A stretch of DNA of 64,000 nucleotides, taken from a virus. Shown in pieces: positions 15,307 to 61,010 of this stretch. Location of the stretch: positions 6,426 through 70,425 of IMG/VR virus record IMGVR_UViG_3300028534_000025. One strand, 5' to 3'. The notes below the pieces were generated by a model. The model was not told the origin of the DNA. It saw only the letters and a list, made by a program, of their open reading frames with translations, and made no database searches. Each line of letters begins with the position of its first letter. Position 1 is the first letter of the stretch. A program made the position numbers and the translations under genes.

Positions 15307-18300
15307 ATGGCAATAAAATTAAATTTTAAATTAGTTAATAACATTTATAATTTAGATACAGTGATAAATCCAAATCCTTTAAAAGCAGGTAAGTTTGCTT
15401 TTACTGAAGATGGATTATATTCTGAAGAAATATTTGGACCATTACAAAATAATAAATGTAAATGTGGTAAAGTATTTAGTAGATCAAATAAAGGGATTCG
15501 TTGTGATGAATGTAATGTTCTATGTGATAATAAATCATTACGTTCAAAAACATTTGCAAGAATAGATTTACCCCCAAATATATATGTTGTAATGCCTGTG
15601 TTTAAACAGATATTAATTAAAATATTTGGACAAAGTGCAATTAAAAGTATTTTATCTTCATATAAGTATGAAGATAATAAACAAAAACCATATTTTTTTA
15701 GCTTAGAAGAAAGTAAATTAGTTAAAAAAAGTAAATCAAAAAAAAGCGCCCAAGTTATAAATTTTCCGGTATATGATATAACAACACTTCATTCATTATA
15801 TAAAAGTATGCTAAAAGATGATAAATATAAAGATTTAATATATAATCAAATTATTCATCCAGATATAGCTAAATATATATTTGTCAATTTTGTTATTGTC
15901 ACTCCACCAGATAGTAGACCACTTGCAAAATTAAATGATCAGTATCAAGCACACCCAGTTTCAGCTGCATATACAGAAATATTAAAAAATTTAAAAAATT
16001 CGTTTTTAGATAAAGTTTTTGTATCAAATAGTTCTGGTTTTGGTCAAACTATTTATAAATATCAATCTTCAATCGATAAATTATATGCAGAAATATTAGA
16101 TAAAAACTTTCAGAAAAAAGAAAGTATTATTAGAGAATCATTATCTGGAAAAACTGTTGAAACATCATTAAGAGCAGTTATTATACCTGAGCCTATACTT
16201 AGTCCAGGTGCTGTCGCATTACATGAAGAAACTATTAAAAAAGTATTTATTCCTGAATTATTACATTTTTTAAATCAAGATTATTTAAAAAGTATTGAAC
16301 ATGAAGAGAGTTATACTATTGTTAATTTTGTTGAAAAAGTTACAACTCAGATTAAAGCATCAGGTGATATAGATATACCTATTGAATTATTTAAAAAATT
16401 TATTATAGAATTTGGACCAAAATTAAGAATGCTTTTAGAAAGACCTCCAGTATTATGGAGATATAATATTAGTGGTGTTTTATTAGAATTAGTTTATTTT
16501 AATAATCCAGATTATATAGGAATTGGTGAAAATAGAGTAACTGGTGTTAATACACTTATTGCTGCAATGTTTAATATGGATTTTGATGGTGATTCATTAG
16601 CAGTATATGGATTAACATCAGTTCAAGCAAAACGAGATTGGAATTATGCTTTTGCAGAAAATAGTATTGAATTTGAACATCATAGAGGATTAATAGTTTC
16701 TCCTGAACATGAAAGCATATATTGTTCATATATGTTATCAAAACAAGGTGAATTTAAAGGTGCTATTGATCCAGACGATATCCAATTATATGAAGGTGAT
16801 TTAAATGATCTAAAAATTGATATTGAAAGTTTAAAAGAATTTCCTGACGCACCAATTGAATTTGAAGGCAATATTTATAGCTATGCAACATTAGCAATTA
16901 ATGTTGCAATAAATTGTAATAAAATAATTTATGATGGAACTTATAGATTAGATAAAGGAAATTTAAATAATCTAATTAAAAAAATTAGATCAGAAGTAGG
17001 TGATAAGGACTTTTATAAGTATATTCATAATTTTAATAAATTTTTATTAGAAACAGGAACTTTAGTTCAATATTGTAATCCAACTTTTGATCTAGATGAT
17101 TTTGCAATATCTTCACAAGAAATTGTTGATTATAAAAAAACACTTATCGATGAACCATATATTGCATTTCATCAAAATGATATATTATTTAAAGAAAAAG
17201 TTACTCCAGAAGTAATGAAAAATGATGAAAATATTCTTGGTAGAGTATTTTCATCTGGTGCTAGAATTAAATCAGTACAATTATTAAAAGCTGTTAGTAA
17301 TAATGGTATCCCAACAACAATTTATGGAAAAGCTTTTAAAATGAATATTAAAAATTCATTATTAGATGGTTTAACAAAAGAAGAGTTTTTTATTGGTGGA
17401 GATAGTGCTAGATTAGCTTTATCACAAAGACAAGAAGCAATTCCTAAAGGTGGAGAATTACAAAGAAAATTTTATTATTGTACAGGATTTTTATATTTAT
17501 CTGATGAAGATGATTGTGGTTCAACTAGAGGTTTGGAAATAACAATTGAAAATGAAACACATTTAGAATCATTATATGGTAGATATTATATAAATGGTGT
17601 TGAAATTGATGTTGAAGATAAAACATTAATTGGTCAAACAATTATGTTAAGATCAACAATATTTTGTAAATCTAAAGATTATAAAATGTGTACAAAATGT
17701 TTTGGTAAAAAGAAACCTCAAAGTAAAGCTCTTGGAGCTAGTATTGGAGCATTTTTAAGTGAATCTATTATTCAATCAGTTTTAAGAACTCATCATTTTA
17801 GTGGAGCATTTATTACAAAAATTGATAAAGAATTGATTGAAATTATAAAATCGTTAGAATTTCAATCACCTAATTTTGTAAAAGGACCGAAAGAAAATAT
17901 CGAAAAATTGGAAAATTTTATGATGAATAATTATTATAAAGATGGAGAATTAGAATTTAAAAAGAAAGGTAATAAAACAGAAATAATAATTCATGAATTA
18001 CCTTTTAATGATGATTCAGTTAAACAATTAAAAAATATTGTTGGTATGATTGATAAAGCTAGACCATCATTATCAGAAGAATTGATATCAATTAATGATA
18101 TGTATAAATTCTTATTAGAAAATATTGTTTTACCAAATGGTATTTTAAGTGTTTATATTGAATTAGTAATTAGTATATTATTCTTTGATGAAGATGATGT
18201 TATGATAAGATATTCTAATAAAGAACCAGAATATCAAATAGCATTAAAAACAATCATAGATAAATTAGATCCTAAATTATCTATTTTTCATAATTTTAGT

Positions 18301-18387
18301 AATAAAGCAATTAATAAAATATATACATCAAATACAGATACAAATATAAATCATATGTATAATAATCTAATAGAATGTTATCAATAA
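15307..18387 (+). CDS. rpoC: multisubunit DNA-directed RNA polymerase beta'-like subunit (unsplit)
   Basis: DGLYSEEIFGP..CKCG..CDEC Zn finger, RAVI, ERPPVL, catalytic FNMDFDGD, SGAR, bridge helix GLTKEEFF..AR, DCGS, RS..C..C..CFG, trigger loop QSVLRTHHFSG. Confidence 0.93.
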   Translation: MAIKLNFKLVNNIYNLDTVINPNPLKAGKFAFTEDGLYSEEIFGPLQNNKCKCGKVFSRSNKGIRCDECNVLCDNKSLRSKTFARIDLPPNIYVVMPVFKQILIKIFGQSAIKSILSSYKYEDNKQKPYFFSLEESKLVKKSKSKKSAQVINFPVYDITTLHSLYKSMLKDDKYKDLIYNQIIHPDIAKYIFVNFVIVTPPDSRPLAKLNDQYQAHPVSAAYTEILKNLKNSFLDKVFVSNSSGFGQTIYKYQSSIDKLYAEILDKNFQKKESIIRESLSGKTVETSLRAVIIPEPILSPGAVALHEETIKKVFIPELLHFLNQDYLKSIEHEESYTIVNFVEKVTTQIKASGDIDIPIELFKKFIIEFGPKLRMLLERPPVLWRYNISGVLLELVYFNNPDYIGIGENRVTGVNTLIAAMFNMDFDGDSLAVYGLTSVQAKRDWNYAFAENSIEFEHHRGLIVSPEHESIYCSYMLSKQGEFKGAIDPDDIQLYEGDLNDLKIDIESLKEFPDAPIEFEGNIYSYATLAINVAINCNKIIYDGTYRLDKGNLNNLIKKIRSEVGDKDFYKYIHNFNKFLLETGTLVQYCNPTFDLDDFAISSQEIVDYKKTLIDEPYIAFHQNDILFKEKVTPEVMKNDENILGRVFSSGARIKSVQLLKAVSNNGIPTTIYGKAFKMNIKNSLLDGLTKEEFFIGGDSARLALSQRQEAIPKGGELQRKFYYCTGFLYLSDEDDCGSTRGLEITIENETHLESLYGRYYINGVEIDVEDKTLIGQTIMLRSTIFCKSKDYKMCTKCFGKKKPQSKALGASIGAFLSESIIQSVLRTHHFSGAFITKIDKELIEIIKSLEFQSPNFVKGPKENIEKLENFMMNNYYKDGELEFKKKGNKTEIIIHELPFNDDSVKQLKNIVGMIDKARPSLSEELISINDMYKFLLENIVLPNGILSVYIELVISILFFDEDDVMIRYSNKEPEYQIALKTIIDKLDPKLSIFHNFSNKAINKIYTSNTDTNINHMYNNLIECYQ

Positions 18388-19675: not shown

Positions 19676-20116
19676 ATGAAAATTATAGTAACTGAAAAAT
19701 GGTATAGTATTCAAGAATGTTTGAATAATCCTAAAAATTTATATATTTTTGGTGATAATACTAAACATTATGGTAATGGTGGTCAAGCACAAATTAGAGG
19801 TTGTTTAAATACTTTTGGTATTCCAACAAAAAGATTACCAACAATGATGGATGAAGCTTTTTTTGATGATAATAATACTATGGATATTTATGAAATGATT
19901 AGATCATTATCAATATTAGAAAATTATTTAAAAAGCGATAATTATAAAGATTATACTTTTGTATTTCCTAAAGATGGATTGGGAACTGGTTTAGCCCAAT
20001 TAAAATTAAAAGCCCCAGCAATAAGTAAAATGTTATCAGATATATTAGAAGAAAAATTTAGAATAATAACATTAGAAGATGGATCATTAAAAATGAAGGA
20101 TAATAATTATGAATGA
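19676..20116 (+). CDS. conserved phage protein (YIFGDN...GGQA.IRG family)
   Basis: YIFGDN, GNGGQAQIRG, GIPTK, GLGTGLA motifs. Confidence 0.7.
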   Translation: MKIIVTEKWYSIQECLNNPKNLYIFGDNTKHYGNGGQAQIRGCLNTFGIPTKRLPTMMDEAFFDDNNTMDIYEMIRSLSILENYLKSDNYKDYTFVFPKDGLGTGLAQLKLKAPAISKMLSDILEEKFRIITLEDGSLKMKDNNYE

Positions 20117-20873
20117 AAAAATTTTAGAAGAAAACACTTTATGTGTTATAAATTCAAGCGGTGGATTAGACTCAACAACATTAATGGCTAAAGCTTTAGC
20201 TGAAGGAAAAACAGTATTACCTGTAAATTATAATTATGGTCAAAAAAATATTATTGAAATGGAAGCACAAAAAAATGTTTGGCAATTTTTAAAAAATAAA
20301 TATCCAGATCAATTAAAAGAAACAATTATTATTGATTTTACAGAAACATTAGGGAATGCTATAAAAACTTTCCAATTGAATAGAGATTCTGGAGAAACAG
20401 AAAAAAAGACAGATATGAAATACTATATGCCTAGTAGAAATTTATTATTTATGACAACAAGTTTAGTTATTGCAGAAATTATAGCACTTGATCAAAATAT
20501 AACAAAAATAGAATTAGGTTTAGGTATTCATAAACATTCTGATATTTATACTAGAGACTATTGGGATATTAGTCCTGATTTTGCAACAAGATTACAATCG
20601 ATTTTAGAATTAAATGATAATGTTAAAGTTGAAGTATATGCTCCTTATGCTGATAAATTAAAATCTGATATAATTCAAGACTCATTTTCATATGCAGTTC
20701 CATATGAATTAACTTGGACTTGTTATGAGCCAAATATGATTGAACATGGTTTATATAAACCATGTGATAAATGTGAAGCTTGTTTAGAAAGAAAAACTCA
20801 AGCCGAGGATATTGGTATGGGAGATACTATAAATGATTATAGTATAATAATTGAAGATGAAAAAAAACTTTAG
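20109..20873 (+). CDS. queC: 7-cyano-7-deazaguanine synthase QueC
   Basis: SSGGLDS PP-loop, YNYGQK, MPSRN, TWTCY...PCDKCEAC. Confidence 0.9.
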   Translation: MNEKILEENTLCVINSSGGLDSTTLMAKALAEGKTVLPVNYNYGQKNIIEMEAQKNVWQFLKNKYPDQLKETIIIDFTETLGNAIKTFQLNRDSGETEKKTDMKYYMPSRNLLFMTTSLVIAEIIALDQNITKIELGLGIHKHSDIYTRDYWDISPDFATRLQSILELNDNVKVEVYAPYADKLKSDIIQDSFSYAVPYELTWTCYEPNMIEHGLYKPCDKCEACLERKTQAEDIGMGDTINDYSIIIEDEKKL

Positions 20874-22323: not shown

Positions 22324-23402
22324 ATAAAAATTTAGATAAAAATATTATACAAATATTACAAAACCCAACATTGAAAGTTATTAATAATCATACAATTAAA
22401 AAAATTCTAAAAAATAATATTAATTATATAAAATTAATGCGCGAAATTTATGATTTAAAATATGATCATATAATAATTCCAATATATGTTTTACAAAGAA
22501 ATATGAAAATAAAGAAAGAAATATTAAATAAAGTATTATCAGAAGCACAAAAATGGCAATATTTATATTATTTATTAGATGAAGAATATTTTAAAGGTAC
22601 AGATAAAATTAAAAGACATTCTAAATATTTTAGATACGCTTTATCTTTTGATTTAAATCCAAAAGATTATCAAAAATTATTAACGTATAATGAAAATATT
22701 AGAAACATACATACTACAGAATATAATATTTTTGATATTATACCAGATGATGATATTATAGCATTAGAAGATTTTATAAATGAAGCTATAAGAATAAGTG
22801 TTTCAGAAAATAATGATATTATAAAAGAAACAATATTTAGAGTACCAAAAATATTAGATAATTCAAAAATATTTAATATATGGTTAAATAAAATATTTCC
22901 AAGAGTAGAACATAATGTTTGTAATGATAAAATAATAAACATTATTAAAAATAATGCAATATATAAACAATGTTTTATATATGAATTTTTAAAATATGAT
23001 AATATGTTTCATTGGTTATTTTATAAATATTATCAAACTATAAATATTATAGGAGATGTTGAAGTATATAATTTATTAAAAGATAAAGATTTAAGTAAAT
23101 ATCATTTTCATTATTCAAATTTTTGTAATAATCAACAAAAGTTAATAATTACAAAACTTACAATTTTTAATTCAGATATTGAATTAAAAGAAGCAATTTT
23201 TAAAAATAAATTACCTCTTAGTATTTATAAAAAATATAATCCAAAACTATTTAAATCAATTGAAAAAGATTTAAAAAATGATGATTATTTTTTAAAGAGA
23301 GATTATCCAAAAGAATTTGAAAAAAAATATAGAAAAGAAGATGATTTAATTAAATTTAATTCACAAGATGAGTTATTAAAATATTTAAAGGAAAATAAAT
23401 GA
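22320..23402 (+). CDS. hypothetical protein
   Basis: 360 aa ORF, ATGA overlap. Confidence 0.7.
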   Translation: MNKNLDKNIIQILQNPTLKVINNHTIKKILKNNINYIKLMREIYDLKYDHIIIPIYVLQRNMKIKKEILNKVLSEAQKWQYLYYLLDEEYFKGTDKIKRHSKYFRYALSFDLNPKDYQKLLTYNENIRNIHTTEYNIFDIIPDDDIIALEDFINEAIRISVSENNDIIKETIFRVPKILDNSKIFNIWLNKIFPRVEHNVCNDKIINIIKNNAIYKQCFIYEFLKYDNMFHWLFYKYYQTINIIGDVEVYNLLKDKDLSKYHFHYSNFCNNQQKLIITKLTIFNSDIELKEAIFKNKLPLSIYKKYNPKLFKSIEKDLKNDDYFLKRDYPKEFEKKYRKEDDLIKFNSQDELLKYLKENK

Positions 23403-24523
23403 AAAATTTACAATTAATACAATTAGGTAATGGAGGTGGATTAGCTCCAGAAAAAACAAATAGTTCATTTTTAATACATTTTAAATATAATGATACTTAT
23501 ATGTTATTTGATTGTGGAATGAATATAATGTCAAAATTATTAGAATTTGAAAAATATAATAATAATTTTAAAATGTCAAAATTAAAATATGTATTCATAT
23601 CACATATACATGATGATCATATTGGATCATTAGAAACATTAGTTAATTATCAAAAATATACAATAGAAATGGATGATTTTAATATATTCTTTGCAAATAA
23701 TGAAGTGTCAGAATTTATAACATTAAAAAAATTAAGAAAAAAATATGAATGTTATCATATAAATGATAATATAATAACATCATTACTTAATATTCATATT
23801 TTCTCAATTGATGGTAGTCATAATGAAACATTATCAAATGGACTTTGTTTTATTGATTCTATTAATAATGATATGATTTATATTTCAGGTGATACTAAAG
23901 CAACAGAATTTATTGAACAAACATTAAGAGAAAATATAAAAAAATTTAAAATTAAAAAATATATATTGATGCATGATTATTCACACTGGAATGAACCAGA
24001 TATAAACCCACATATGTGTTTAGATAACATGAATAAAATTTATTCATCTGAATTTATTAAATTATTAACAATGTATCATACAGGTGAAACAAAATATAAT
24101 TGTTTTCATGAAGCAAAACGATTAGAAATATCAGTCGAAATATCAGTTGAAAATACAAATTTTAGTGATAACATTTTTACATGGGATAGTCATTATCAAA
24201 ATGGTGATTGTTATATTATTGGTATTGATAATGGTAATAATTATGAAATACAAATTAATATCGATGATGTATCTCTTAAAGTTGATAATATTACTGAATC
24301 ATTATTTTTATTTGATATTAATGTTATTATCGAAAAGAATAATAATATAATATTTGATAGTTGTTTTGAAGAATTAAATATTGATCAAATTAGAATATTA
24401 TTAAAAAATCATTTAAATATAAATGAGGATTATATAAATCTACCAACAGCTGTTGACATTGACGATGTTTATCAAAAATCTATGGATTGGAAATCTAAAA
24501 ATGGTCAATATGATAAAAAATAA
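23399..24523 (+). CDS. metallo-beta-lactamase-fold hydrolase (RNase Z-like) with C-terminal extension
   Basis: LGNGGG, LFDCG, SHIHDDH, YISGDT motifs. Confidence 0.85.
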   Translation: MKNLQLIQLGNGGGLAPEKTNSSFLIHFKYNDTYMLFDCGMNIMSKLLEFEKYNNNFKMSKLKYVFISHIHDDHIGSLETLVNYQKYTIEMDDFNIFFANNEVSEFITLKKLRKKYECYHINDNIITSLLNIHIFSIDGSHNETLSNGLCFIDSINNDMIYISGDTKATEFIEQTLRENIKKFKIKKYILMHDYSHWNEPDINPHMCLDNMNKIYSSEFIKLLTMYHTGETKYNCFHEAKRLEISVEISVENTNFSDNIFTWDSHYQNGDCYIIGIDNGNNYEIQINIDDVSLKVDNITESLFLFDINVIIEKNNNIIFDSCFEELNIDQIRILLKNHLNINEDYINLPTAVDIDDVYQKSMDWKSKNGQYDKK

Positions 24524-31050: not shown

Positions 31051-31950
31051 ATGATAGATGATCTAAAAAAAGAAAAAATTTTATCAAAATTAAATATTAT
31101 ACATAATAATAAATATATATATGATCTATCAAATTATAAAAATATAAATTCAATTATTAATATAACTTGTAAAATTCATGGAAAATTTAAACAAAAATTT
31201 TACAATCATATGTATAGAAAAAATGGTTGTAAAAAATGTAATATTAAAGGACATTCACATTTAACATTATTTGATTTTATTATAAAAGCAAATAATGTTC
31301 ATAATAATAAATATATATATGATAAAGTTAAATATACAAATTATAAAACTAATATCAACATTGTATGTAAAAAACACGGATTATTTAAACAATCACCACT
31401 TAATCATATATCAAATAAAGCTGGTTGTCCAAAATGTGCAAATAATAAATTATTAACATTAGATGAATTTATTATGAAATCAAATATTGTTCATAATAAT
31501 TTATATGATTATTCACAGAGCAAATATATTTCAGGAAATAAAAAAATAAATATTATATGTAAAAAGCATGGAATATTTAAACAAACACCTGAATCACATT
31601 TACAATATCATGGTTGTCCAAAATGCAATAATTCAAGAGGAGAATTATTAATATATGATATTTTGAAAAAAAATAATATCAAATTTAAATGTGAACATAA
31701 ATTTGATGATTGTATAAATATACAAACTGGTTATAAATTAAGATTTGATTTTTATTTATATGAATTAAATATTTGTATAGAATATGATGGGAAACAACAT
31801 TTTGAAAATAATAGTTTTTTTAATAATAAAGATATTTTTAAACAATTATTAATTCGAGATATGATAAAAGATCAATATTGTGATATGAATAATATCAAAT
31901 TAATACGAATAAATTATAATAATGAAATTTATTCAATAATAGGAGAATAA
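31051..31950 (+). CDS. free-standing homing endonuclease-like protein (repeated C.KHG.F.Q..H..GC..C modules plus C-terminal PD-(D/E)xK/Vsr-like domain)
   Basis: three Cys/His repeats; SRGE, RFDFYL..LNICIEYDGKQH, KD.YC..NNIKLIRI. Confidence 0.8.
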   Translation: MIDDLKKEKILSKLNIIHNNKYIYDLSNYKNINSIINITCKIHGKFKQKFYNHMYRKNGCKKCNIKGHSHLTLFDFIIKANNVHNNKYIYDKVKYTNYKTNINIVCKKHGLFKQSPLNHISNKAGCPKCANNKLLTLDEFIMKSNIVHNNLYDYSQSKYISGNKKINIICKKHGIFKQTPESHLQYHGCPKCNNSRGELLIYDILKKNNIKFKCEHKFDDCINIQTGYKLRFDFYLYELNICIEYDGKQHFENNSFFNNKDIFKQLLIRDMIKDQYCDMNNIKLIRINYNNEIYSIIGE

Positions 31951-32932: not shown

Positions 32933-33156
32933 TATGTTTAATAACAATGAATAATAAAAACGCTTACAGTTATGATAATGTTATAAAAGTAGAGCATCAA
33001 GGATCATATATAAAAATAGTACAAAATAAAAATGTAAATGAAATTTCTTTATATAATAATAAAAATATTGATATTAATTTAGATTTATATACAAGTACAG
33101 GAGTATTATTATCTAAATCAAGATATATAAATGGTAAATTGGAAGGAGAAATATAA
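32929..33156 (+). CDS. hypothetical protein
   Basis: 75 aa ORF, ATGA overlap. Confidence 0.55.
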   Translation: MICLITMNNKNAYSYDNVIKVEHQGSYIKIVQNKNVNEISLYNNKNIDINLDLYTSTGVLLSKSRYINGKLEGEI

Positions 33157-33157
33157 T

Positions 33158-35503
33158 ATGCAAAAAATAAATACAAGTATTACAAATGCTTTAGAAGATG
33201 TTGCAGGTAAAAAAAAATATCAAGATGATCATTTAATTAATGAGCTTAATGAAGCTGATATAGAAAATGCAAACAAAATAGATAAGATTAATATTAGAAA
33301 AGAATATCAATTAGAATCGGAAGATACAAATATATTTAGTCCTCAAATTGAGGTTTTTGCTCCATTTGCAGCTCATGTTGATGCAAGTAGATCAAATATG
33401 TCAGCAAAACAATTATTACAAGTTGTTACATCTAAAAATAATGATATACCTTTTGCTTTAAATAAAAATTTTAAAAGCTTGACAAATATCAATTCACCAT
33501 TTATTGAATTTGCGGAAGATGATGGTTTTGTATTATCAGATGTTGGAGAATTTTTAATAATATATTATACAACATTAAAAAAAATAGAAACAAAATATGT
33601 ACCAAAATCAAAAGCTTTAGTTAATAATGCTATTACTTTAAGATATAAAAGAACAAAAAATATTGATGAATCAAATTTCAAAAAAGGTGATGTATTATTT
33701 GATTACACTGGACAAGTATTACATAGTTCAATACCAAAAATAGGTTATAGAACTAATATCATGTATGGTCAATTTTTTGGTTATACGGCAGAAGATGCTT
33801 TTGTAGCATCTGAAGATTGGGCAAAAAGAACAACAATAAGTTATAAAAAAAAAGTATTTGTACCAATTACTAAATTATTCAAATATTTTAAAAATAAAAA
33901 AGGAAATTACTTTTATGATGAAGGTGAAATATTACAAGAAAATTATTTAGACTATTTAAAGACAGATATGTCTTCATCATTTTTAAGTGAATTTACGAAT
34001 ATTTCTGAAAAAAAATCTAAAATATATGGAAGAAGTGTTGATGCTATTCCTGGAGCAACTATTGATAAAGTTAAAGTTCATATAATAAATAAAGATAAAA
34101 CATTTCAAGAATTAGAAGATGAATATATTTATACTAAAGGATTAATTGAAGAAACTTTAAAAATATATAATAGACAAATGGATATTAAAAGACAAGTATA
34201 TAGAGATTTTAAAGCATCTTTAAATGAAGAATATGCAATTGCATATACAAATAGTGTTATAAATAAATGGGAAACAACAGAACATTTTTCAAAATTAACA
34301 TTAGAACAGATTGCACAAGATTATAATATTGATACAGAACATATAGATTTAGTTTTAGAAATTGAAATGTCTAAAGATGAAAATACTTGTCTTGGAGATA
34401 AATTTGCAAATGTATATGCTGGAAAAGGGGTTTGTTCATTAATAATTCCAACACATTTAATGCCTAAAGATGAACATGGTATTCCTGCAGATATTATTTT
34501 TAATCCACTTGGATCATTTGGTCGAAATAACTGGGGAACAATGTTTGAAATAGCAATAGCTAGAGTTGTTGAAGATGTTCAAAGTGTTACTTATGGTAAT
34601 TTATCAAAAGAAACGGTAGATAGATTACAATTTATAAATAAACATTTTATTAAAAAGTTTGATAAAGAATATTATGAAGAAGTTAATACATTAATTGCTA
34701 AATTAAAAATTAATAAAGATGACTGGATTAATTTTAAAAAAGATGTTTTAAAAAATAAATTTTTTTTATATATTGATACATTTCCAGGAATAACTTATGA
34801 TGATTTTATTAGAAATTTTATCATACCATATGAAGAAAAATTTAATATTAATATCACTAAAAAACATAAAACAAAATATTCTACAGAATTAATGAAATAT
34901 ATGAGAGATAGAGGATATGTATCATCTGTTTATACAAAAGATGATATAGAGGAAGTTGAACAAAATGTATTTTTTGGTAAAAATTATTGGGTAAAATTAT
35001 TTCATACGAGTCATAGTAAATATAATGCATTAGGGTTTGCATCAAGTTATAGTAAAACTACTGGTGAGCCTCCAAAAGGATCTAAAAAAAATGGTGGAGC
35101 ACATACATCATGGCAAACAACTTGGGCAACAGTAGGACATAAAGATCAAAATGCTATGTTAAAAGAATTATCTACTATTAAATCAAGTGCAATATATGAT
35201 AAAAATAATTTTATGCAAAAAATAATAAAAGATGGTGAATATCATCTAAAAGATACTTACAGATCTCCAACAATCACAACATTAAATAATGCTTTAAATA
35301 TGATTATGTTAGAATTTGATAATGTTGAACAATTATCATATGAATTTAATAATGTTGTTGATGATATGGAAAATGATTTAGATATAAAAATTGAAGACTT
35401 ATTTGAATCAACTTCTGAAGACTCGGAAGATCGAAATGATATAGGTGTTGAAGATGATTTAGATGATATTGATTATGATATTATTACTGGAGAAGTAAAA
35501 TGA
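33158..35503 (+). CDS. rpoB: RNA polymerase beta-like subunit, C-terminal part
   Basis: PFAAHVDASRSNMSAKQLLQ, GYTAEDAFVAS, LGDKFANVYAGKGVCS, DIIFNPLGSFGRNNWG, YWVKLFH, TGEPPKG..KNGG; AAGGAG RBS before ATG 33158. Confidence 0.92.
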   Translation: MQKINTSITNALEDVAGKKKYQDDHLINELNEADIENANKIDKINIRKEYQLESEDTNIFSPQIEVFAPFAAHVDASRSNMSAKQLLQVVTSKNNDIPFALNKNFKSLTNINSPFIEFAEDDGFVLSDVGEFLIIYYTTLKKIETKYVPKSKALVNNAITLRYKRTKNIDESNFKKGDVLFDYTGQVLHSSIPKIGYRTNIMYGQFFGYTAEDAFVASEDWAKRTTISYKKKVFVPITKLFKYFKNKKGNYFYDEGEILQENYLDYLKTDMSSSFLSEFTNISEKKSKIYGRSVDAIPGATIDKVKVHIINKDKTFQELEDEYIYTKGLIEETLKIYNRQMDIKRQVYRDFKASLNEEYAIAYTNSVINKWETTEHFSKLTLEQIAQDYNIDTEHIDLVLEIEMSKDENTCLGDKFANVYAGKGVCSLIIPTHLMPKDEHGIPADIIFNPLGSFGRNNWGTMFEIAIARVVEDVQSVTYGNLSKETVDRLQFINKHFIKKFDKEYYEEVNTLIAKLKINKDDWINFKKDVLKNKFFLYIDTFPGITYDDFIRNFIIPYEEKFNINITKKHKTKYSTELMKYMRDRGYVSSVYTKDDIEEVEQNVFFGKNYWVKLFHTSHSKYNALGFASSYSKTTGEPPKGSKKNGGAHTSWQTTWATVGHKDQNAMLKELSTIKSSAIYDKNNFMQKIIKDGEYHLKDTYRSPTITTLNNALNMIMLEFDNVEQLSYEFNNVVDDMENDLDIKIEDLFESTSEDSEDRNDIGVEDDLDDIDYDIITGEVK

Positions 35504-35751
35504 GTAAAATATTAATTGAAGATGAACTTGATACAATTAGAATAAATTATAAATCTTTACCATCATTTATTAGAAGTGATATTGAAGAATTTCAAGAAGA
35601 AAATAACCTATATTTAGATATAGATAAAAATGGTTATTGTAATATTAAAAAAGCGTTAGATTATTGGTTACAATGGAATGGTATTGTTGGATATACTAAC
35701 AATATCATTACATTTATAAATTGTATTATTATTGATAAAAAAGAAATTTAA
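35500..35751 (+). CDS. hypothetical protein
   Basis: 83 aa ORF, WLQWNGIVGY motif. Confidence 0.6.
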   Translation: MSKILIEDELDTIRINYKSLPSFIRSDIEEFQEENNLYLDIDKNGYCNIKKALDYWLQWNGIVGYTNNIITFINCIIIDKKEI

Positions 35752-36635
35752 TGGCAAAAAAGTTAACTATTGATGAATTCATTCTTCGAGCAAATAAAAT
35801 TCATAAAAAATATAATTATAAAAATTATAATGGATTAAAATATAATGTTGATATATTTTGTTCTGAAAAAGATCATGGATGGTTTTCTGTATCTGCTAAT
35901 ACTCATTTATACGATAAAGTTGGTTGTCCATTTTGTTCAAGAAAAAAATTTAATATTAATTTATTATATTCTATATTAGATAATTATAAATATAATATTA
36001 ATTTTATTTATTGTTTAGATGATATTGTATATTCTTTAAATGATAATATATCAATGAAATGTTTAAAATGTAATAATATTAATAATAAAAAAATAAAAAA
36101 TATTATACATAAAAATACAGGATGTAAGTGTAATAAAGGATTAGATATGAAAGAAACTTTTATCAATAGAGCATCTAAAATTAATCCAAAATACAATTAT
36201 GATTTTGTAAATTTTATAAATTCAAGAACTAAGGTTAAAATAATATGTGATAATAATCATATATTTTATCAAACACCTGATAATCACATTTATAAGAAAC
36301 AAGGTTGTCCAAAATGTAATATATCATATGGTGAAAAAGAAATTATAAAAATATTAAATGATAAAAATATTAATTTTATTCACCAATATAAATTTGATAA
36401 ATGTTATTTTAAACGAAAATTATCTTTCGATTTTTATTTACCAGATTTAAATATATGTATAGAATATGATGGGATACAACATTTTAAAGAAGTAAAATTC
36501 TTTGGAGGAAAGCAAAAATTAATATATATACAAAATAATGATTTTATAAAAAATAATTATTGTAAACGAAATAATATAAAACTCATACGTATAAGTTATG
36601 ATGAAAATATAAAAAATAAATTAAAGGATATTTAA
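35751..36635 (+). CDS. free-standing homing endonuclease-like protein, paralogue of 31051..31950
   Basis: same Cys/His repeats and SYGE...FDFYLPDLNICIEYDGIQH domain. Confidence 0.8.
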   Translation: MAKKLTIDEFILRANKIHKKYNYKNYNGLKYNVDIFCSEKDHGWFSVSANTHLYDKVGCPFCSRKKFNINLLYSILDNYKYNINFIYCLDDIVYSLNDNISMKCLKCNNINNKKIKNIIHKNTGCKCNKGLDMKETFINRASKINPKYNYDFVNFINSRTKVKIICDNNHIFYQTPDNHIYKKQGCPKCNISYGEKEIIKILNDKNINFIHQYKFDKCYFKRKLSFDFYLPDLNICIEYDGIQHFKEVKFFGGKQKLIYIQNNDFIKNNYCKRNNIKLIRISYDENIKNKLKDI

Positions 36636-42207: not shown

Positions 42208-43569
42208 ATGAATAAATTAAAAAATATTAAAGAAATTAGTCTAGCTAATTTCTATGATACAGAATATGCTGATTATGCAATTTATAGAGCCCTTCAAAGA
42301 ATACCAAGTATTTTAGATGGATTTGCACAAACACAAAGAAAAATTATATACACATGTATAGATAAAAATATTGATAAAAAAATGAAAGTATCTGATCTTG
42401 CAGCTGTTGTAAGTTTACATACAAAATATCATCATGGTTCAACTTCTATTGAAACAGCGATTTCAAATCTAGTACCAAAATATAATAATCAAATTCCTCT
42501 ATTACGAGAAGATGGTACATATGGTTCAAGATCTGATAGAGATGCTTCAGCTCCTAGATATATAGAAACAAGATTATATAAATATTCTAAAATTATTTTT
42601 AATGATATTGATAATGATATGTTTGTTGAAAAACAAGAAACTGAAAAACAACAAATTGAACCTAAATTTATGATACCTATTATACCATTATTGATTATAA
42701 ATGGTCAAAAGCAAATCGGTGTAGGTTATGCTACAAATATATTACCAAGATCACAAAAAACAATTATAAAAATATTAAAAGATATATTAACAGGTAAAGA
42801 AAAAACAATACCGACATCAATTTCTCCACATATGCCTTTATTTAATGGAAATATTTATACAAATAAAAAAGGTGGTTGGACATTTGAAGGTATTATTAAA
42901 CCAGGACCAAGAGGTTCATATATAATATCGGAAGTACCACCAAATTATACTAGAGACTCATATATGATTATTTTAGAAAAATTGAAAGATGATGGAAAGA
43001 TTAAATCATATACTGAAAATATTTTGGGAGATGATTTTGATATAACAGTTAGATTTACTAATAAACCTAAAGATATTCCTTCAGCTATTAAGCTTTTAAA
43101 ATTAACATCATCTGTTACAGAAACAATAACAGTTATAAATACAAATAATGAAATAAAACAATATAACACTATTGGTGAAATATTTTTTGAATATATTATG
43201 TTTGTATTGGATATTTTTAGGAAAAGAAAAGATTATATTATTTCAAAAATTGAAGAAGAAAATTCTATAAATTTAAATAAAATTAGATTTATTAAAGATG
43301 TAAATAAAGATGTAATTATATTGAAAAAAAATAAAAGAATTAATGTTATTAATAAATTACAAGAATTAAATTATGATTTATTTGATGATAGTTTTGAATA
43401 TTTATTACGAATGAGAATTGATTCATTAACAGATGAAAAAATTATTGAATTTGAGGAAATTATTAAAAAAGAAACTGAAGAATTAAATACAATTAAAAAT
43501 AAAACTGCTGCACAAATGTGGTTATTGGATTTAGAAAATTTTGAAAAACAATTAAAGAAAGGCGAATAA
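42208..43569 (+). CDS. type II DNA topoisomerase, breakage-reunion (A) subunit (T4 gp52-like)
   Basis: RIPSILDGF..TQRK, YHHGSTS, GTYGSR..ASAPRY (catalytic Tyr), IGVGYAT. Confidence 0.95.
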   Translation: MNKLKNIKEISLANFYDTEYADYAIYRALQRIPSILDGFAQTQRKIIYTCIDKNIDKKMKVSDLAAVVSLHTKYHHGSTSIETAISNLVPKYNNQIPLLREDGTYGSRSDRDASAPRYIETRLYKYSKIIFNDIDNDMFVEKQETEKQQIEPKFMIPIIPLLIINGQKQIGVGYATNILPRSQKTIIKILKDILTGKEKTIPTSISPHMPLFNGNIYTNKKGGWTFEGIIKPGPRGSYIISEVPPNYTRDSYMIILEKLKDDGKIKSYTENILGDDFDITVRFTNKPKDIPSAIKLLKLTSSVTETITVINTNNEIKQYNTIGEIFFEYIMFVLDIFRKRKDYIISKIEEENSINLNKIRFIKDVNKDVIILKKNKRINVINKLQELNYDLFDDSFEYLLRMRIDSLTDEKIIEFEEIIKKETEELNTIKNKTAAQMWLLDLENFEKQLKKGE

Positions 43570-44225
43570 TGTTAAAATATATAAAATATATAAAATATGC
43601 ATATAATTATATTAAAAAAAATATAAAATATATTAAAGAAAATTCAATATATGAAGGATTTTATTATCCTGTTATTGGAAATAATTCAATGTGGTCAAAT
43701 AGAAATACAGGAATTATTATGTCAACATTAGTTGGAGGTTATGGTGAAAATTATGATAAGTGGTGGACATTTTATTGGGGAATTAAATGTAAATTTAAAA
43801 ATCCAGATAAACCATTTAAACAATCAGTTATTGATGCAATAGAGAGACATCCAGAAATGGTAATTGAAAAATATTTAATTACGGATGAACAAGATCCTAA
43901 TCCTATATATATGGATTATGTTAATACAAAAAGTGGATTAGGAATTGGAGATATTGCTATGGCTGCAAGTTTATTAAATTTAAATGAATTTAAAACATAT
44001 AGAGATGATGTTGGAAAACAAGTATGTTGTGGTTATGATAGAAAAACTAAAATATATTATGGTTGGTCACATAGAGCTAAAGTTGGTTTTGAGATAGGAG
44101 ATAAAATTTTTGAAGAAGAATTTGGAGATGATTCAACACCATATAAACAACATGGTTCAAAAACAATTGAAACTAAAGATGATCAATTAAAAGCTGCAAG
44201 AGCATTTGCTGAATCAGTATCATAA
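43569..44225 (+). CDS. conserved phage hypothetical protein
   Basis: YYGWSHRA..GFEIGD ... AARAFAESVS. Confidence 0.65.
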   Translation: MLKYIKYIKYAYNYIKKNIKYIKENSIYEGFYYPVIGNNSMWSNRNTGIIMSTLVGGYGENYDKWWTFYWGIKCKFKNPDKPFKQSVIDAIERHPEMVIEKYLITDEQDPNPIYMDYVNTKSGLGIGDIAMAASLLNLNEFKTYRDDVGKQVCCGYDRKTKIYYGWSHRAKVGFEIGDKIFEEEFGDDSTPYKQHGSKTIETKDDQLKAARAFAESVS

Positions 44226-55613: not shown

Positions 55614-56459
55614 ATGAAAGAAATTAACATTAATGGAGATATTATCTCAAAAGAAGATGTAAAAATATTGGCTAAAAAATTTAATAATAAGTTTAATAAA
55701 AAAAATAATAAAGATTTTGATATAGCTGTATCAAAATATTTAAAATTAAAAAATTTTAAAATAAATGAGAATGTATATAATACAACATATAATAAAAATA
55801 AATATGACAAGTATGTTCAATATATTGTACAAATTATTGGAACTTATTTTATGAATAAAGTTTTTAATGTATTAAAAATAGATATGACAGATAATAATAC
55901 TAAAGAAGATTTAAATGTTGGTAATATTGGTACACCAGGAAGAATCATAAAGATGTTTACTGGAAGTTCATTGGATGATGATACAGAACTGATGTCAGGT
56001 AGATGGATTAAATCTCCTAGATTAGCATCATTTAAGGATGAATTAACTGAAGAAGAATTTGGGTTTCCATTAGAAAAAAATATTCCAATTACTAAAAGAG
56101 TAGATATTGTTGCATTATGTTCTCATCATGCAGTACCATTTAGTTCTATGTTTAGGCCAGATAGTTATGCAGTAATAAGTTATATACCAAAAGATTTTGT
56201 TTTAGGTATTAGCAAGCTACAAAGAATTACTAATTTTGTTTCAAGAAGAGGCTGGTTACAAGAAGATTTAACTAGAGAATTATATAAAGAAGTGGCATTA
56301 GCCGCAAAGACTAATTCTGTATATGTAAGATTGTATAATTTAGTACATAATTGTGAATTTTTAAGAGGAGCTCAGAGTTCTGATGGTTGTTTTACATCTG
56401 AATTTTATGGTGGAAAATTTAAAAAAGAAAAATTTAGAGCAATGGTTTTGGATAAATAA
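55614..56459 (+). CDS. folE: GTP cyclohydrolase I
   Basis: TPGRI, LCSHHAVPF, ISYIP..VLGISKLQR, LQEDLT, HNC..RG. Confidence 0.92.
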   Translation: MKEININGDIISKEDVKILAKKFNNKFNKKNNKDFDIAVSKYLKLKNFKINENVYNTTYNKNKYDKYVQYIVQIIGTYFMNKVFNVLKIDMTDNNTKEDLNVGNIGTPGRIIKMFTGSSLDDDTELMSGRWIKSPRLASFKDELTEEEFGFPLEKNIPITKRVDIVALCSHHAVPFSSMFRPDSYAVISYIPKDFVLGISKLQRITNFVSRRGWLQEDLTRELYKEVALAAKTNSVYVRLYNLVHNCEFLRGAQSSDGCFTSEFYGGKFKKEKFRAMVLDK

Positions 56460-56460
56460 T

Positions 56461-56976
56461 ATGTATTATTTTATGTTAGGTGAATATAACTTTAATGAAA
56501 TATTAATTGATCAAGTTTTTAAATTTAAAACAGATGATGATATAATACTTGATTCTAACATTTTAATAGTATCATCAAAATTAGAATTATTTATATCAAA
56601 ATTTTCACTAGTGTTGAATGACTCTAGTGAAAAGGTAGCATTAAATAAATTATTAGATATACATGATTTGGATACATTTGAATATGATAATTTATCAAAA
56701 ATACCTTTTGGTTCAAAAACTATACCATTAGATTTTAGTAATATCCAATGTCTAATTACAGATTCTAAATATAAATTAAATAAATATATGTATGTTTATA
56801 TTAATATAGATGAACATAAAAACTATTCTATTGAATTTTATATTAAAGATACAACATCAATCAATTATAATTTATTATATCAAGAATTAAATATTTTATC
56901 ATTAGATAAAGCATATGATAAAATTTCTGAAATTTTAAATGGTATTGATTTAAGAAAAGATATAAAAAGGATATAA
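56461..56976 (+). CDS. hypothetical protein
   Basis: ORF; ATG 56461 directly follows the folE stop. Confidence 0.6.
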   Translation: MYYFMLGEYNFNEILIDQVFKFKTDDDIILDSNILIVSSKLELFISKFSLVLNDSSEKVALNKLLDIHDLDTFEYDNLSKIPFGSKTIPLDFSNIQCLITDSKYKLNKYMYVYINIDEHKNYSIEFYIKDTTSINYNLLYQELNILSLDKAYDKISEILNGIDLRKDIKRI

Positions 56977-56977
56977 T

Positions 56978-57475
56978 ATGTCGCAGAATATTATTAAAGA
57001 ATTTAATGAATTATGGCATTTAGAAAATAATTTCATTGAAACGATAGAACATCATCCTCAGTTACAATATGCGGATACAGATAGTTTATGCAGACACAGC
57101 ATAATAAACATTAAAGAAACCTTACAATATAATAATAGATTTAAAGAATATAGTATAGAAAACTTATTTGATAAAGTTGAAGGAAACATTGAAACAATAG
57201 GAAAAGATAATTTTGTTAAACATTTAACAAAAGAATATTTAACACCAAGTGTTTCAAAAAATTTAAAACTAGAAAATAAACCTATAACCTATATTATGAA
57301 ACATAAAGTAAAGAAAAGAATGTTTAAAATTAAAGTTAATGGAGACGAAGTTGATATTACTGAAGATCATTCTTTAATGGTACTTCGTAATAAGAAATTA
57401 GTTGAAATTAAGCCTGGAGAAGTAAAAAAAGATGATAGATTATATAAAATTCAAAGAAAAACCAAAGTGTGTTGA
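56978..57475 (+). CDS. family B DNA polymerase fragment (35-aa N-extein ending YADTD) fused to the N-half of a split intein
   Basis: YADTD then intein block A (SLCRHSII) and block B (ITEDHSLMV). Confidence 0.88.
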   Translation: MSQNIIKEFNELWHLENNFIETIEHHPQLQYADTDSLCRHSIINIKETLQYNNRFKEYSIENLFDKVEGNIETIGKDNFVKHLTKEYLTPSVSKNLKLENKPITYIMKHKVKKRMFKIKVNGDEVDITEDHSLMVLRNKKLVEIKPGEVKKDDRLYKIQRKTKVC

Positions 57476-57703
57476 ATGTGGAGAAACAGAAATAGATGAT
57501 ATTATATGGGATAATTATACACAAAATCAAATAAATATTATATATGAAGAAATAAAGGAGTATATTATATGGAAGAACAATATGAATTAAAAGAATATAC
57601 TGATTTTGAAATAATAGATTTAGGTATAAAAGAAGAATGGGTATATGATATAGAAGTTGAAGATAATCATAATTTTTTTGGAAATAATATATTAGTACAC
57701 AAT
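57083..57703 (+). mobile_element. naturally split intein (IntN 57083-57472, 130 aa; IntC 57569-57703, 45 aa)
   Basis: Ser1 start, TxxH block B, VYDIEV..NHNFF.N.ILVHN C-terminus, Ser+1. Confidence 0.88.
57432..57590 (+). CDS. 52-aa out-of-frame ORF with CxxC bridging the intein split (possible endonuclease remnant)
   Basis: MIDYIKFKEKPKCVECGETEIDD...; overlaps both intein halves. Confidence 0.35.
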   Translation: MIDYIKFKEKPKCVECGETEIDDIIWDNYTQNQINIIYEEIKEYIIWKNNMN

Positions 57704-58582
57704 TCAGCGTATTTAATATATAATTTACCATTTAATAAATTTGAAGATATTCATCAACTTGTTGATTATGTTCAAAAAATTGCTAGAGAATTAGGGAAAT
57801 TATATAATGGTGCTTTGGAATATTATGGAAATTTTGCAAATCTAAACCCAACATATAATACTATGGATTTTAAATCTGAAGTAATTGCATATAGAGGTTT
57901 TTTTGGTGGAAAAAAATTCTATTCATTAGCAACATGTTGGGATGAAGGAACATTTTTTGAAGAAGAACCATATTTAAAGAAAACTGGTGGGGCTATAGTT
58001 AAATCTGATACAACACCACTTTCTAGAAGAATGTTAGATGAAGTTTATAATGTTCTTGTGAAAGATTATTCAGATACATCCTTAGTTTCTATTTATAGAA
58101 AAATATTTGTAAAAATAAAAAATAAATATAAATTAAAAATTAAGGATTCTATAAAAGATTTAGATTTTGCAGAATTTTCTACTCCAAAAAAATGGGGAAA
58201 TACGGAAAAAACGATACCTCCATTTGTAATAGGAGCTATGTTGTATAATACTTTAATAGGAGATACTTTTCGTCCATCTGATAGTATGATAGCATTAAAA
58301 GTAAAAATAGATGTAGAATTATTAATTCAAGTCTTTAAAGAAAAATATCATAAAGATATAGAATTTTGTTTAACATTATCTCAAGTTGAAAAATTAAAAA
58401 ATAAAATAAATATGATTAGTATACCTACAGATATAAGTGATGAAGAAAAAAAGAAATTATTAAAAATAATGAATGACTTAAATATACAATTATTATTAGA
58501 TGAAATTATAATGTTTAATATTGATATGAAATTAGATCCATTTGAAAGATTATTTAATGATGATATAAGGTTAAGAGCATGA
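57569..58582 (+). CDS. split intein C-half plus family B DNA polymerase C-terminal (palm/thumb) part
   Basis: own AAGGAG RBS; ILVHN|SAY, MDFKSE, GKKFY, KTGGAIVKSDT. Confidence 0.88.
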   Translation: MEEQYELKEYTDFEIIDLGIKEEWVYDIEVEDNHNFFGNNILVHNSAYLIYNLPFNKFEDIHQLVDYVQKIARELGKLYNGALEYYGNFANLNPTYNTMDFKSEVIAYRGFFGGKKFYSLATCWDEGTFFEEEPYLKKTGGAIVKSDTTPLSRRMLDEVYNVLVKDYSDTSLVSIYRKIFVKIKNKYKLKIKDSIKDLDFAEFSTPKKWGNTEKTIPPFVIGAMLYNTLIGDTFRPSDSMIALKVKIDVELLIQVFKEKYHKDIEFCLTLSQVEKLKNKINMISIPTDISDEEKKKLLKIMNDLNIQLLLDEIIMFNIDMKLDPFERLFNDDIRLRA

Positions 58583-59667
58583 GTATAATAAATGATCTAA
58601 GACCAGGAATATTATTAAATGATGAAACAGTTCATCAATTTAATAAACTTTTAAAAAATAATGTTATAAAATTTCATCAAGTTTACAATTTAGATATTGA
58701 GCCAAGTGAATATCATTTTATAGATTTTTCATTAAGATTTAATGAGTCAAAAAAAAATAAACAATTAAATAAAACATATTATGATATTGAAACCTTTGTA
58801 TCAGAGAGTGGTGATTTTACAGATCCTATAAAAGCTGATCATCCAATAAATGCTGTTGCATTATATAATAATATAGCAAATACAGTTTATTGTTTAACTT
58901 ATTTAGATGAACTTGTTGATACACATGGTTTATCTAATGATGAAATTATTGCAGAAGTAAAAACACAATACGAACAGTTATGTGAAAAAGATAATGTTTA
59001 TTATGTAGATGATATTACTATTGATGTAATTATTTTTCAAAATGAAATGGATTTACTTGAAAAAATGTTTTTATTATTTCGGGAATTTAACACTTTATCG
59101 TTAGTAGGATTCAATAGTTCACAATTCGATGATCCATATATATTTAATAGAACTTCAAAATTATTTGGTGAAGATCGAATGAAAGAAATCGTATCTGAAT
59201 TCAAAACAGTTGATAAATTTGGTCAATCATCATATGAATTACCAGATTATGTATTGGTTGATATTTTAAAATTATATAAACCAGTAGGACAAGGTGGTGG
59301 AGGATTAGGTAAAGCATTACCTAATTATAAACTTAATACTGTTGCAAAGAAAGTTTTAGGTATTACTAAATTAGATTTAAATACAGGCTTTCGTGAAACA
59401 TATTTGAATAATATTGTTGGTTATTTATCATACAATATTATAGATACAATTCTAACATATAAGTTAGATAAAAAATTACAATTTTTAGAAGAACAATTTA
59501 GTTTATCGAAATATAATAATAGTTCTATGGGAGCTACAATGAGTGGTAGATCATTTTTATATTCATATAGAAATGATCATATGTATTCATCTAGAGATAA
59601 ATTAATTAGAGCTAAAAGGTTTAATAGAGAAGTATTGTATGAACCAAAAATAAAAACAATATATTAA
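58579..59667 (+). CDS. family B DNA polymerase 3'-5' exonuclease domain as a stand-alone gene
   Basis: ExoI YDIET, ExoII GFNSSQFDDPYI, YKLNTVA..LG..K, ExoIII YNIIDT. Confidence 0.88.
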   Translation: MSIINDLRPGILLNDETVHQFNKLLKNNVIKFHQVYNLDIEPSEYHFIDFSLRFNESKKNKQLNKTYYDIETFVSESGDFTDPIKADHPINAVALYNNIANTVYCLTYLDELVDTHGLSNDEIIAEVKTQYEQLCEKDNVYYVDDITIDVIIFQNEMDLLEKMFLLFREFNTLSLVGFNSSQFDDPYIFNRTSKLFGEDRMKEIVSEFKTVDKFGQSSYELPDYVLVDILKLYKPVGQGGGGLGKALPNYKLNTVAKKVLGITKLDLNTGFRETYLNNIVGYLSYNIIDTILTYKLDKKLQFLEEQFSLSKYNNSSMGATMSGRSFLYSYRNDHMYSSRDKLIRAKRFNREVLYEPKIKTIY

Positions 59668-60161: not shown

Positions 60162-61010
60162 ATGAAACTTAATACAGAATTACAAGCATTACTTTTAAAC
60201 AGAAAACCACAATTAATTGAACATTTCTTCTCACTTGAGGGTGAAGGAGCTACAGTAGGTAGAAGTGCATTATTTATTAGAACAAACCAATGTAACTTAA
60301 AATGTTCATTTTGTGATACATCGTATAGCATTAAAGGTGATGCAGATCAATTACATCCTGATATGACATCAGAGAGCTATACAAATTATTTAATTGAAAA
60401 TTATTCAGAAGATATTAGAGAACACACACATAGTTTAAGTATTACTGGAGGTGAACCTCTTCTGAATTTAGATTATTTAAAAGAAATAATTGAAAGAACA
60501 ATGAAAGCTTTTCCAGCAATAAAAAATATTATAATTGAGACAAATGGTATATTATTACAACATAGAGAAATATGTTTAAAACTAGTAGAACAAGTTGGAA
60601 AATTTGTACCAAATGTTAAATTTATATTATCTATTTCTCCTAAACTTTCAGGTAAAGTTTCACATTCTGATAAATTAACTGATGATATGGTGTTAGAACA
60701 ATATAAAAAAGTAATTATTAATTATAAATGGTTATTAGATGCTCATTTTGATATACAATTAAAAGTTGTACATTCAGATGAATTAAAAATTCAAAATGAA
60801 CCTTTAATTAGATTTGCTCTTGGTAAAACTAAAGAAATTAATGACACATTAAGACATGATCAAATTTTAGTAATGCCTTTTACACCACCACATCCAATAG
60901 ATAGAGATAAAGAATTATGGGAAGAATCAAAAGATAATGCAGCAAAATATGCTATGAAATATCATTTTAGATATAGTCCAAGAATTCATATTGATAGAAG
61001 ATTGGATTAA
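60162..61010 (+). CDS. queE: 7-carboxy-7-deazaguanine synthase (radical SAM)
   Basis: FFSLEGEG..GR..LFIR..CNLKCSFCDT, ITGGEP, IETNG, ISPK, SPRIH. Confidence 0.92.
   Translation: MKLNTELQALLLNRKPQLIEHFFSLEGEGATVGRSALFIRTNQCNLKCSFCDTSYSIKGDADQLHPDMTSESYTNYLIENYSEDIREHTHSLSITGGEPLLNLDYLKEIIERTMKAFPAIKNIIIETNGILLQHREICLKLVEQVGKFVPNVKFILSISPKLSGKVSHSDKLTDDMVLEQYKKVIINYKWLLDAHFDIQLKVVHSDELKIQNEPLIRFALGKTKEINDTLRHDQILVMPFTPPHPIDRDKELWEESKDNAAKYAMKYHFRYSPRIHIDRRLD

Follow-up and report, generated by a model that had tools for sequence, protein, structure and literature searches.

Within the window, the whole stretch of 64,000 nucleotides analysed here (IMG/VR record IMGVR_UViG_3300028534_000025), two adjacent open reading frames (ORFs) divide a family B DNA polymerase (PolB) sequence in the middle of motif C, which raises the question of how an active site can be obtained from them. 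A preliminary description had proposed that a naturally split intein rebuilds the active site of the polymerase by splicing in trans. With high confidence we conclude that the adjacent genes encode the halves of a Ser-dependent split intein in motif C, that their products are likely to trans-splice to a subunit of 327 residues, and that the 52-residue reading frame between them is the remnant of a likely Vsr-like homing endonuclease gene, which is whole in a close relative. Dependence of the phage on protein trans-splicing is the best inference.

ORF 56978-57475 consists of an extein of 35 residues ending in YADTD and an IntN of 130 residues, with the Ser1 codon at 57083, the block B motif TEDH and a stop codon at 57473-57475. 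ORF 57569-58582 is preceded by its own AAGGAG ribosome binding site (RBS) and consists of an IntC of 45 residues and an extein of 292 residues starting with Ser+1 (Table 1). Coordinates, lengths and motifs of both ORFs are as given in the preliminary description, and the joined exteins indeed amount to 327 residues containing PolB motif C. The description had overlooked a third ORF (57432-57590, 52 residues), which overlaps both halves. SD-like 4-mers precede 57 of the 72 long ORFs, compared with 95 of 1771 other ATG codons. IntN and IntC lie in the same frame, separated by a gap of 93 nt, and four in-frame stops (that of IntN and three more) are found between them.

Table 1. Features of the split polymerase locus, in positions of the window.
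Feature	Position	Strand	Description
N-extein	56978..57082	+	35 aa; opens the motif C/thumb subunit of PolB; last residue equivalent to RB69 D623
IntN	57083..57475	+	130 aa and stop; Ser1, NX Lys73-His74, block B Thr93/His96, charge +11, Cys3/Cys130
Remnant of putative Vsr-like homing endonuclease gene	57432..57590	+	52 aa of 333 aa; overlaps IntN stop by 44 nt and IntC start by 22 nt
Deletion junction	57504..57519	+	16 nt matching either flank of the extra 843 bases in X2; an imperfect microhomology at Ile-Trp codons
AAGGAG RBS of IntC gene	57555..57560	+	within 3' end of endonuclease remnant; 8 nt before ATG
IntC	57569..57703	+	45 aa; block F Asp at 57647, terminal His-Asn, charge -11, without Cys
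C-extein	57704..58582	+	292 aa from Ser+1 (equivalent to RB69 S624); remaining palm and thumb of PolB
Stand-alone PolB 3'-5' exonuclease gene	58579..59667	+	362 aa; PF03104, E 8e-10

A search with the NCBIfam intein models, as the preliminary description had suggested, gave matches above cut-off in both halves, namely TIGR01445 in IntN (24.6 bits, cut-off 24.5) and TIGR01443 in IntC (33.2 bits, cut-off 15.6). The best PDB match of both is entry 9HTH (E 4e-17 for IntN, 1e-10 for IntC), the sequence of which agrees with the intein of phage Aes123. The residues of a class 1 intein of the Hint type are complete (Ser1, Thr93/His96, Asp157, His174-Asn175 and Ser+1), and in an alignment all splicing residues are conserved across 19 related inteins. 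The NX motif is formed by Lys73-His74, its histidine is found in 18 of the 19 aligned inteins, and it fits the cysteine-independent Ser1/Ser+1 type, in which Lys or Arg precedes the histidine. With separate ORFs, start signals of their own, a split at the endonuclease site and opposite charges, the halves have the properties of a naturally split intein. The insertion point is located in motif C between the equivalents of RB69 D623, which we take to be the metal-binding catalytic aspartate, and S624 (DTD/S, the slash marking the site), exactly as in the Aes123 PolB1 allele. By its sequence the intein is thus a Ser1/Ser+1 allele of the Aes123 PolB1 type. The parallel to Aes123 drawn in the preliminary description therefore holds, whereas the one to Nanoarchaeum does not, since that intein belongs to the pol-c allele (Neq Pol, Mimivirus; YGD/TDS), two residues upstream of the site used here.

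Both nucleophiles are serines, and cysteines occur only at positions 3 and 130 of IntN and nowhere in IntC, as had been stated; taken over both halves, the intein is accordingly not Cys-less in the strict sense. Since position 3 is Val, Leu, Ile or His in 17 of the 19 aligned rows and residue 130 is Tyr in the relative P0107, both cysteines are likely to be dispensable. The mean hydropathy of the N2 region, a crude measure, is -0.79 versus -0.53 in Aes123.

The close relative was found in X2, a run of a hydrothermal vent metagenome from a different study than X1, the likely source run of the window. Its contig aligns with the window at 94-97% DNA identity and without gaps in two pieces, differing at 17 places in 56988-57519 and at 33 in 57504-58065, and retains the stop of IntN without any indel. 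The IntN ORF and the protein P0107 (165 aa, 94% identical) have the same end point, the last Cys being replaced by Tyr in P0107, and P0107 and P0133, the endonuclease treated below, share substitutions with the X2 contig. In X2 the distance between the two pieces exceeds that in the window by 843 bases (record 1390 versus 562, with an overlap of 16 nt), which gives a gap of 936 nt; these extra bases are represented by their length and by the protein P0133. An exact-pattern scan of viral contigs gave zero matches to the DNA of the X2 relative, its contig is absent from the 43 metagenome loci, and no relatives were found in the prokaryote genome collection.

If 281 codons are restored to the 52 of ORF 57432-57590, a parent protein of 333 residues is predicted, and the search returned a single protein, P0133, of exactly this size. 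The first 26 residues of the remnant differ from P0133 at two places and the last 28 are identical. Hence 281 of 333 codons are deleted in the window, including all predicted catalytic residues, and the ends that were kept are those that overlap the IntN stop and hold the RBS of IntC. P0133 is one of a family of 1252 representatives. It is homologous to the 'putative VSR endonuclease' of Aes123 (30%, E 5e-17) and to the intervening ORFs in CP21, VPALA and Lak phages, and it resembles DUF559 proteins, while a Pfam search gave no match. It carries E247, D262, E274, H280 and D289 in an EDxHD-type arrangement, where H280 was placed by eye, the alignment column being gapped in P0133. Its predicted fold reached a pLDDT of 40 from the single sequence and of 92 from an alignment of 113 sequences; the top-probability PDB match of the model is the catalytic domain of I-Bth0305I (probability 0.97, weak E of 0.054). 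Vsr itself was matched with E 0.4. P0133 is therefore regarded as a putative Vsr-like (EDxHD-type) homing endonuclease; the scatter of occupied alleles over the extein tree is an indirect sign of homing.

Owing to the 843-nt deletion of the endonuclease between the halves, the locus can be described as a fractured-gene locus after endonuclease loss, like Aes123 in its arrangement. It corresponds to step III of Dassa et al., with adjacent halves, a gap of 93 nt and the endonuclease gone; the whole free-standing endonuclease of step II is found in the X2 relative and in loci L031, L036 and L046. A 5' hairpin before the endonuclease start is not evident (fold of -3.6 kcal/mol), a promoter scan remained at chance level (36 found, 36.5 expected) and a terminator was not found. 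A second, independent remnant (58-61 aa), the ends of which match those of the endonuclease, bridges IntN and IntC at 9715-9900 of L049, a locus on a contig of 226 kb, and its left break lies near codon 30, as in the window. Selection of an in-frame bridging remnant for translational coupling finds no general support: such a remnant is clear in the window and L049 and absent in most of the other nine distinct short-gap loci. In L007 (3765-5879; P0136, 704 aa) one frame runs from the endonuclease through IntC to the C-extein, and a start codon is absent near IntC. Five cluster members (P0022, P0140 and P0142-P0144) show in-frame deletions of 209 or 224 residues, by which the repeat region is gone and the nuclease domain is kept.

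How much of this arrangement could be produced by the assembly has to be considered for the split and for the deletion separately. That an assembly error divided one cis-intein into two ORFs has next to no probability. Of 106 homologues, 7 do have a cis mini-intein at this site, but here the halves are separated by four in-frame stops, the gap is homologous to the endonuclease and not to an intein linker, the X2 contig retains the stop in a gap-free alignment and P0107 ends at the same residue; on these sequences the split of the intein into two ORFs is real, and the misassembly that the preliminary description had named as a danger does not account for it. For the deletion, the corresponding reading is that the split intein is genuine whereas the missing 843 nt are a library or assembly chimaera and the living phage keeps a whole endonuclease. 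The junction does fall within an imperfect microhomology of 16 nt, the remnant follows P0133 as closely as described above, and no contig of run X1 spans the locus, so that the junction rests on one assembly. Yet all 329 of 329 sampled words of 56400-59600 are present in run X1 (which is not independent), a parallel remnant exists in L049, and internal deletions of the same gene are found in the five cluster members. Moreover, words used in assembly are usually longer than an imperfect repeat of 16 nt. We consider a chimaera unlikely.

Two further explanations accept the DNA as it stands and concern its products. The intein or subunit might be dead, or might work unspliced, either with the N-extein held by the folded intein or with another gene providing motif C. 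Split phage enzymes can function without covalent joining, as reported in PMC2988022 and PMC13648687, and since the genome is incomplete, a second, intein-free copy is possible. On the other hand, all splicing residues are retained, two strains have both ORFs intact, the only DTDS-type motif of the whole contig is the one interrupted here, and the insertion breaks a tight hairpin immediately behind the catalytic Asp; in RB69, T622-D623 are described as critical and as part of a hairpin aligning primer and dNTP (PMC3799440). This explanation is very unlikely in our view. Recoding, by ribosome bypass or read-through across the 93-nt gap, could exploit the common frame of IntN and IntC and yield one cis-splicing precursor. 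It would, however, have to overcome the four in-frame stops in a gap without an in-frame TGT landing codon matching the last IntN codon, IntC has an RBS of its own, the gap of the X2 relative measures 936 nt, and of the ten distinct loci with a short gap within the best 80 of 287, five are out of frame. We regard recoding as highly improbable, and a split intein acting in trans remains the preferred reading.

The subunit in which the intein resides was characterised by means of 106 homologues of the C-extein. The site is empty in 89 of them (302-380 aa, median 323, with a median N-extein of 30 aa), which identifies a stand-alone subunit starting about 30 residues before motif C as the family norm. 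Seven carry the cis mini-intein mentioned above, three are split with an IntC (one of them the window's own), two have the endonuclease fused to IntC and five are unclassified. The product of 327 residues is by its sequence the motif C/thumb subunit only; motifs A and B and the exonuclease reside in separate genes. In 45 of 58 family loci, counting duplicates between collections, the exonuclease gene is found close to that of the subunit, and it is likely to encode a second subunit of the same polymerase. Motifs A and B were not found on the 72-kb contig, and the exonuclease ORF lacks motif A, unlike the two-subunit polymerase of the PhiKZ (chimallivirus) type, which has motif A on its exonuclease subunit and fingers, motif C and thumb on the second. 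The window thus contributes motif C and the exonuclease, whereas A and B are found in relatives: in L020 (259-2496) and L021 (3669-5906) the A/B subunit is naturally fused with the motif C/thumb subunit (745 aa), and in L048 motifs A/B are encoded by a separate gene of 416 residues, 2.4 kb after the start of the homologue of the last ORF of the window contig, which is cut. With a separate exonuclease gene and an A/B part that is fused or separate in relatives, the polymerase likely consists of three chains, which in the window phage would originate from four genes.

Class 1 self-excision and extein ligation are inferred for this intein from the Aes123 and CP21 alleles. Basic IntN (+11) would capture acidic IntC (-11) and folding would follow, a capture driven by opposite charges having been described for such inteins (PMC12707363). 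Ser1, aided by His74 and His96, would then perform the N-O shift, the NX histidine being required in Ser1 inteins according to the study that defined the motif (PMC10189870). After transfer of the N-extein to Ser+1, cyclisation at His-Asn would free the intein, and the hairpin of motif C would be restored, with the catalytic Asp contributed as the final residue of the N-extein. The spliced chain would assemble with the exonuclease subunit from the next gene and with the A/B subunit, the gene of which by synteny should lie just beyond the contig end. As to the history of the locus, a mobile unit of split intein and endonuclease would have homed into an empty site, and a recent in-frame deletion of 843 nt would have removed the nuclease and spared the ends containing the IntN tail and stop and the RBS of IntC.

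The distribution of alleles was analysed on an extein tree of 105 rows (100 of the 106 proteins and five loci). Occupied alleles are scattered on it (15 changes versus a shuffled mean of 15.2), and near-identical empty/occupied pairs are found, as expected for homing. A free endonuclease is present in the family loci L031, L036 (identical to L057) and L046. Distances of intein, endonuclease and extein, compared over 21 of 27 loci, are only weakly correlated (rho 0.15-0.30) and give no clear sign of co-transfer as a unit. Of 287 viral loci with a related IntN, the best 80 were sorted by arrangement: the halves are separated by a Vsr-like ORF in 38 and by a long gap without such a match in five, 19 were called split with a short gap, nine are cis and nine unclassified. 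Inspection confirmed 14 of the 19 short-gap calls, which represent ten distinct loci, L049 and two at the pol-c site included; endonuclease loss is therefore ordinary. The gap of a related split intein in L066 contains a GIY-YIG-like ORF (identified by eye), that in L076 a truncated Vsr-like ORF. Sister relationships between split and cis alleles appear twice in the intein tree of 19 rows, CP21 with CC_R7 (97/99) and L007 with P0016 and P0021 (96/92). The first pair belongs to Campylobacter phages, with L060 (CP21) split by an intervening ORF and L061 (CC_R7) a cis mini-intein. Such pairs would fit re-fusion, the tree allowing either direction.

From this a broader picture can be drawn, for and against which we see about equal weight: jumbo phages of marine and vent habitats would form an undescribed family and possess a three-chain replicative polymerase, here from four genes, with the catalytic Asp on a peptide of 35 residues that is joined by trans-splicing. 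A single site would display the whole life cycle of a fractured gene, i.e. the empty site, the split with free endonuclease, the endonuclease-IntC fusion, the endonuclease cut to its two indispensable ends (twice independently) and the re-fused cis mini-intein, so that the split may be reversible.

The contig (72 kb, 22% G+C) contains RNA polymerase subunit genes, and as relatives lie on contigs of 227-295 kb, the virus is likely a jumbo phage. Genes for subunits of a phage-type multisubunit RNA polymerase are located at 15307-18387 and 33131-35503 of the window, the latter without tblastn match among 50,697 phage records. FolE (55614-56459), a QueE-like radical SAM protein (60162-61010) and two QueC genes (10203-11546 and 20109-20873) likely constitute a pathway of 7-deazaguanine DNA modification; in many relatives the polymerase genes are flanked by folE and queE. 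Counter-defence is the likely role of two further genes, one for a Tad6-like Thoeris inhibitor (43569-44225, E 2e-17), the other for a protein of metallo-beta-lactamase fold that matches Apyc1 weakly (23399-24523). Two ORFs of the DUF4379/DUF723 type (31051-31950 and 35751-36635), one of them between RNA polymerase and topoisomerase genes, are likely further free-standing endonuclease genes.

Compared with known systems, the arrangement is of a known kind, and the state after endonuclease loss is already described and common. In the literature covered, which included few subscription journals, neither this family of phages nor a phage PolB of three chains that contains a split intein was found described; published intein lists may include alleles from the family. 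Among the closest is Aes123 PolB1 (gp43B1, putative VSR endonuclease, gp43B2; JN377899; PDB 9HTH), which shares the DTD/S site, Ser1/Ser+1 and the NX histidine, is 46% identical (26 of 37 residues in IntC), has charges of +8/-11 and harbors a homologous endonuclease between its halves in a polymerase that is already split (gp43A/gp43B). In the window, by contrast, the endonuclease is cut to 52 residues, the N-extein comprises 35 instead of 172 residues, motifs A/B reside in a further gene, IntN has two cysteines, and the host is not T4-like and has its own RNA polymerase genes. Aes123 PolB1 trans-splices fast but incompletely in vitro, to about 30% (PMC11923092), and CP21 PolB1 likewise to about 40% (PMC12707363). 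The latter is 49% identical to the window intein and has a homologous intervening ORF; together with LCGC14 and GOM-OPS-1 PolB2 it belongs to the Cys-less split inteins of PMC12707363, which are Ser/Ser PolB inteins with an NX histidine and, like the window intein, a non-conserved Cys. These three come from T4-like phages and were tested biochemically, whereas the present intein is known from its sequence.

As a Cys-free ligation tool, the use put forward in the preliminary description, the intein adds one more strongly charged Ser/Ser candidate to the short list of thiol-independent tools, with cysteines that are present but likely dispensable; its value is modest because the same site has already yielded several characterised Ser/Ser split inteins. 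From the identity in IntC, cross-splicing with the Aes123 intein is plausible, and the window intein is probably not orthogonal to the tools derived from Aes123.

Fractured genes of the step III type, e.g. gp41-7 (Dassa et al. 2009, PMC2677866), likewise have their halves in adjacent genes; as described there, the 3' end of the endonuclease overlaps and supplies the IntC start, and the split persists after endonuclease loss. The window differs in its PolB host, in lacking an evident 5' hairpin and in the near-identical before/after pair with defined deletion end points. With this pair (94-97% DNA identity) the states before and after an endonuclease loss that leaves dependence on trans-splicing can be compared; the 2009 model of this step was built on few examples. 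The Neq Pol intein of the split Nanoarchaeum equitans PolB is a split Ser1 intein in motif C as well, yet it is the pol-c allele (PMC549080) with halves in separate loci. PhiKZ, finally, is also a jumbo phage with its own multisubunit RNA polymerase and PolB in separate genes (gp82/gp50; PMC13648687). Its PolB is split once, after motif A, whereas that of the window family is split before motif A and again before motif C. The findings suggest that this family of uncultured phages has a PolB of three chains, with one split more than PhiKZ or Aeromonas gp43.
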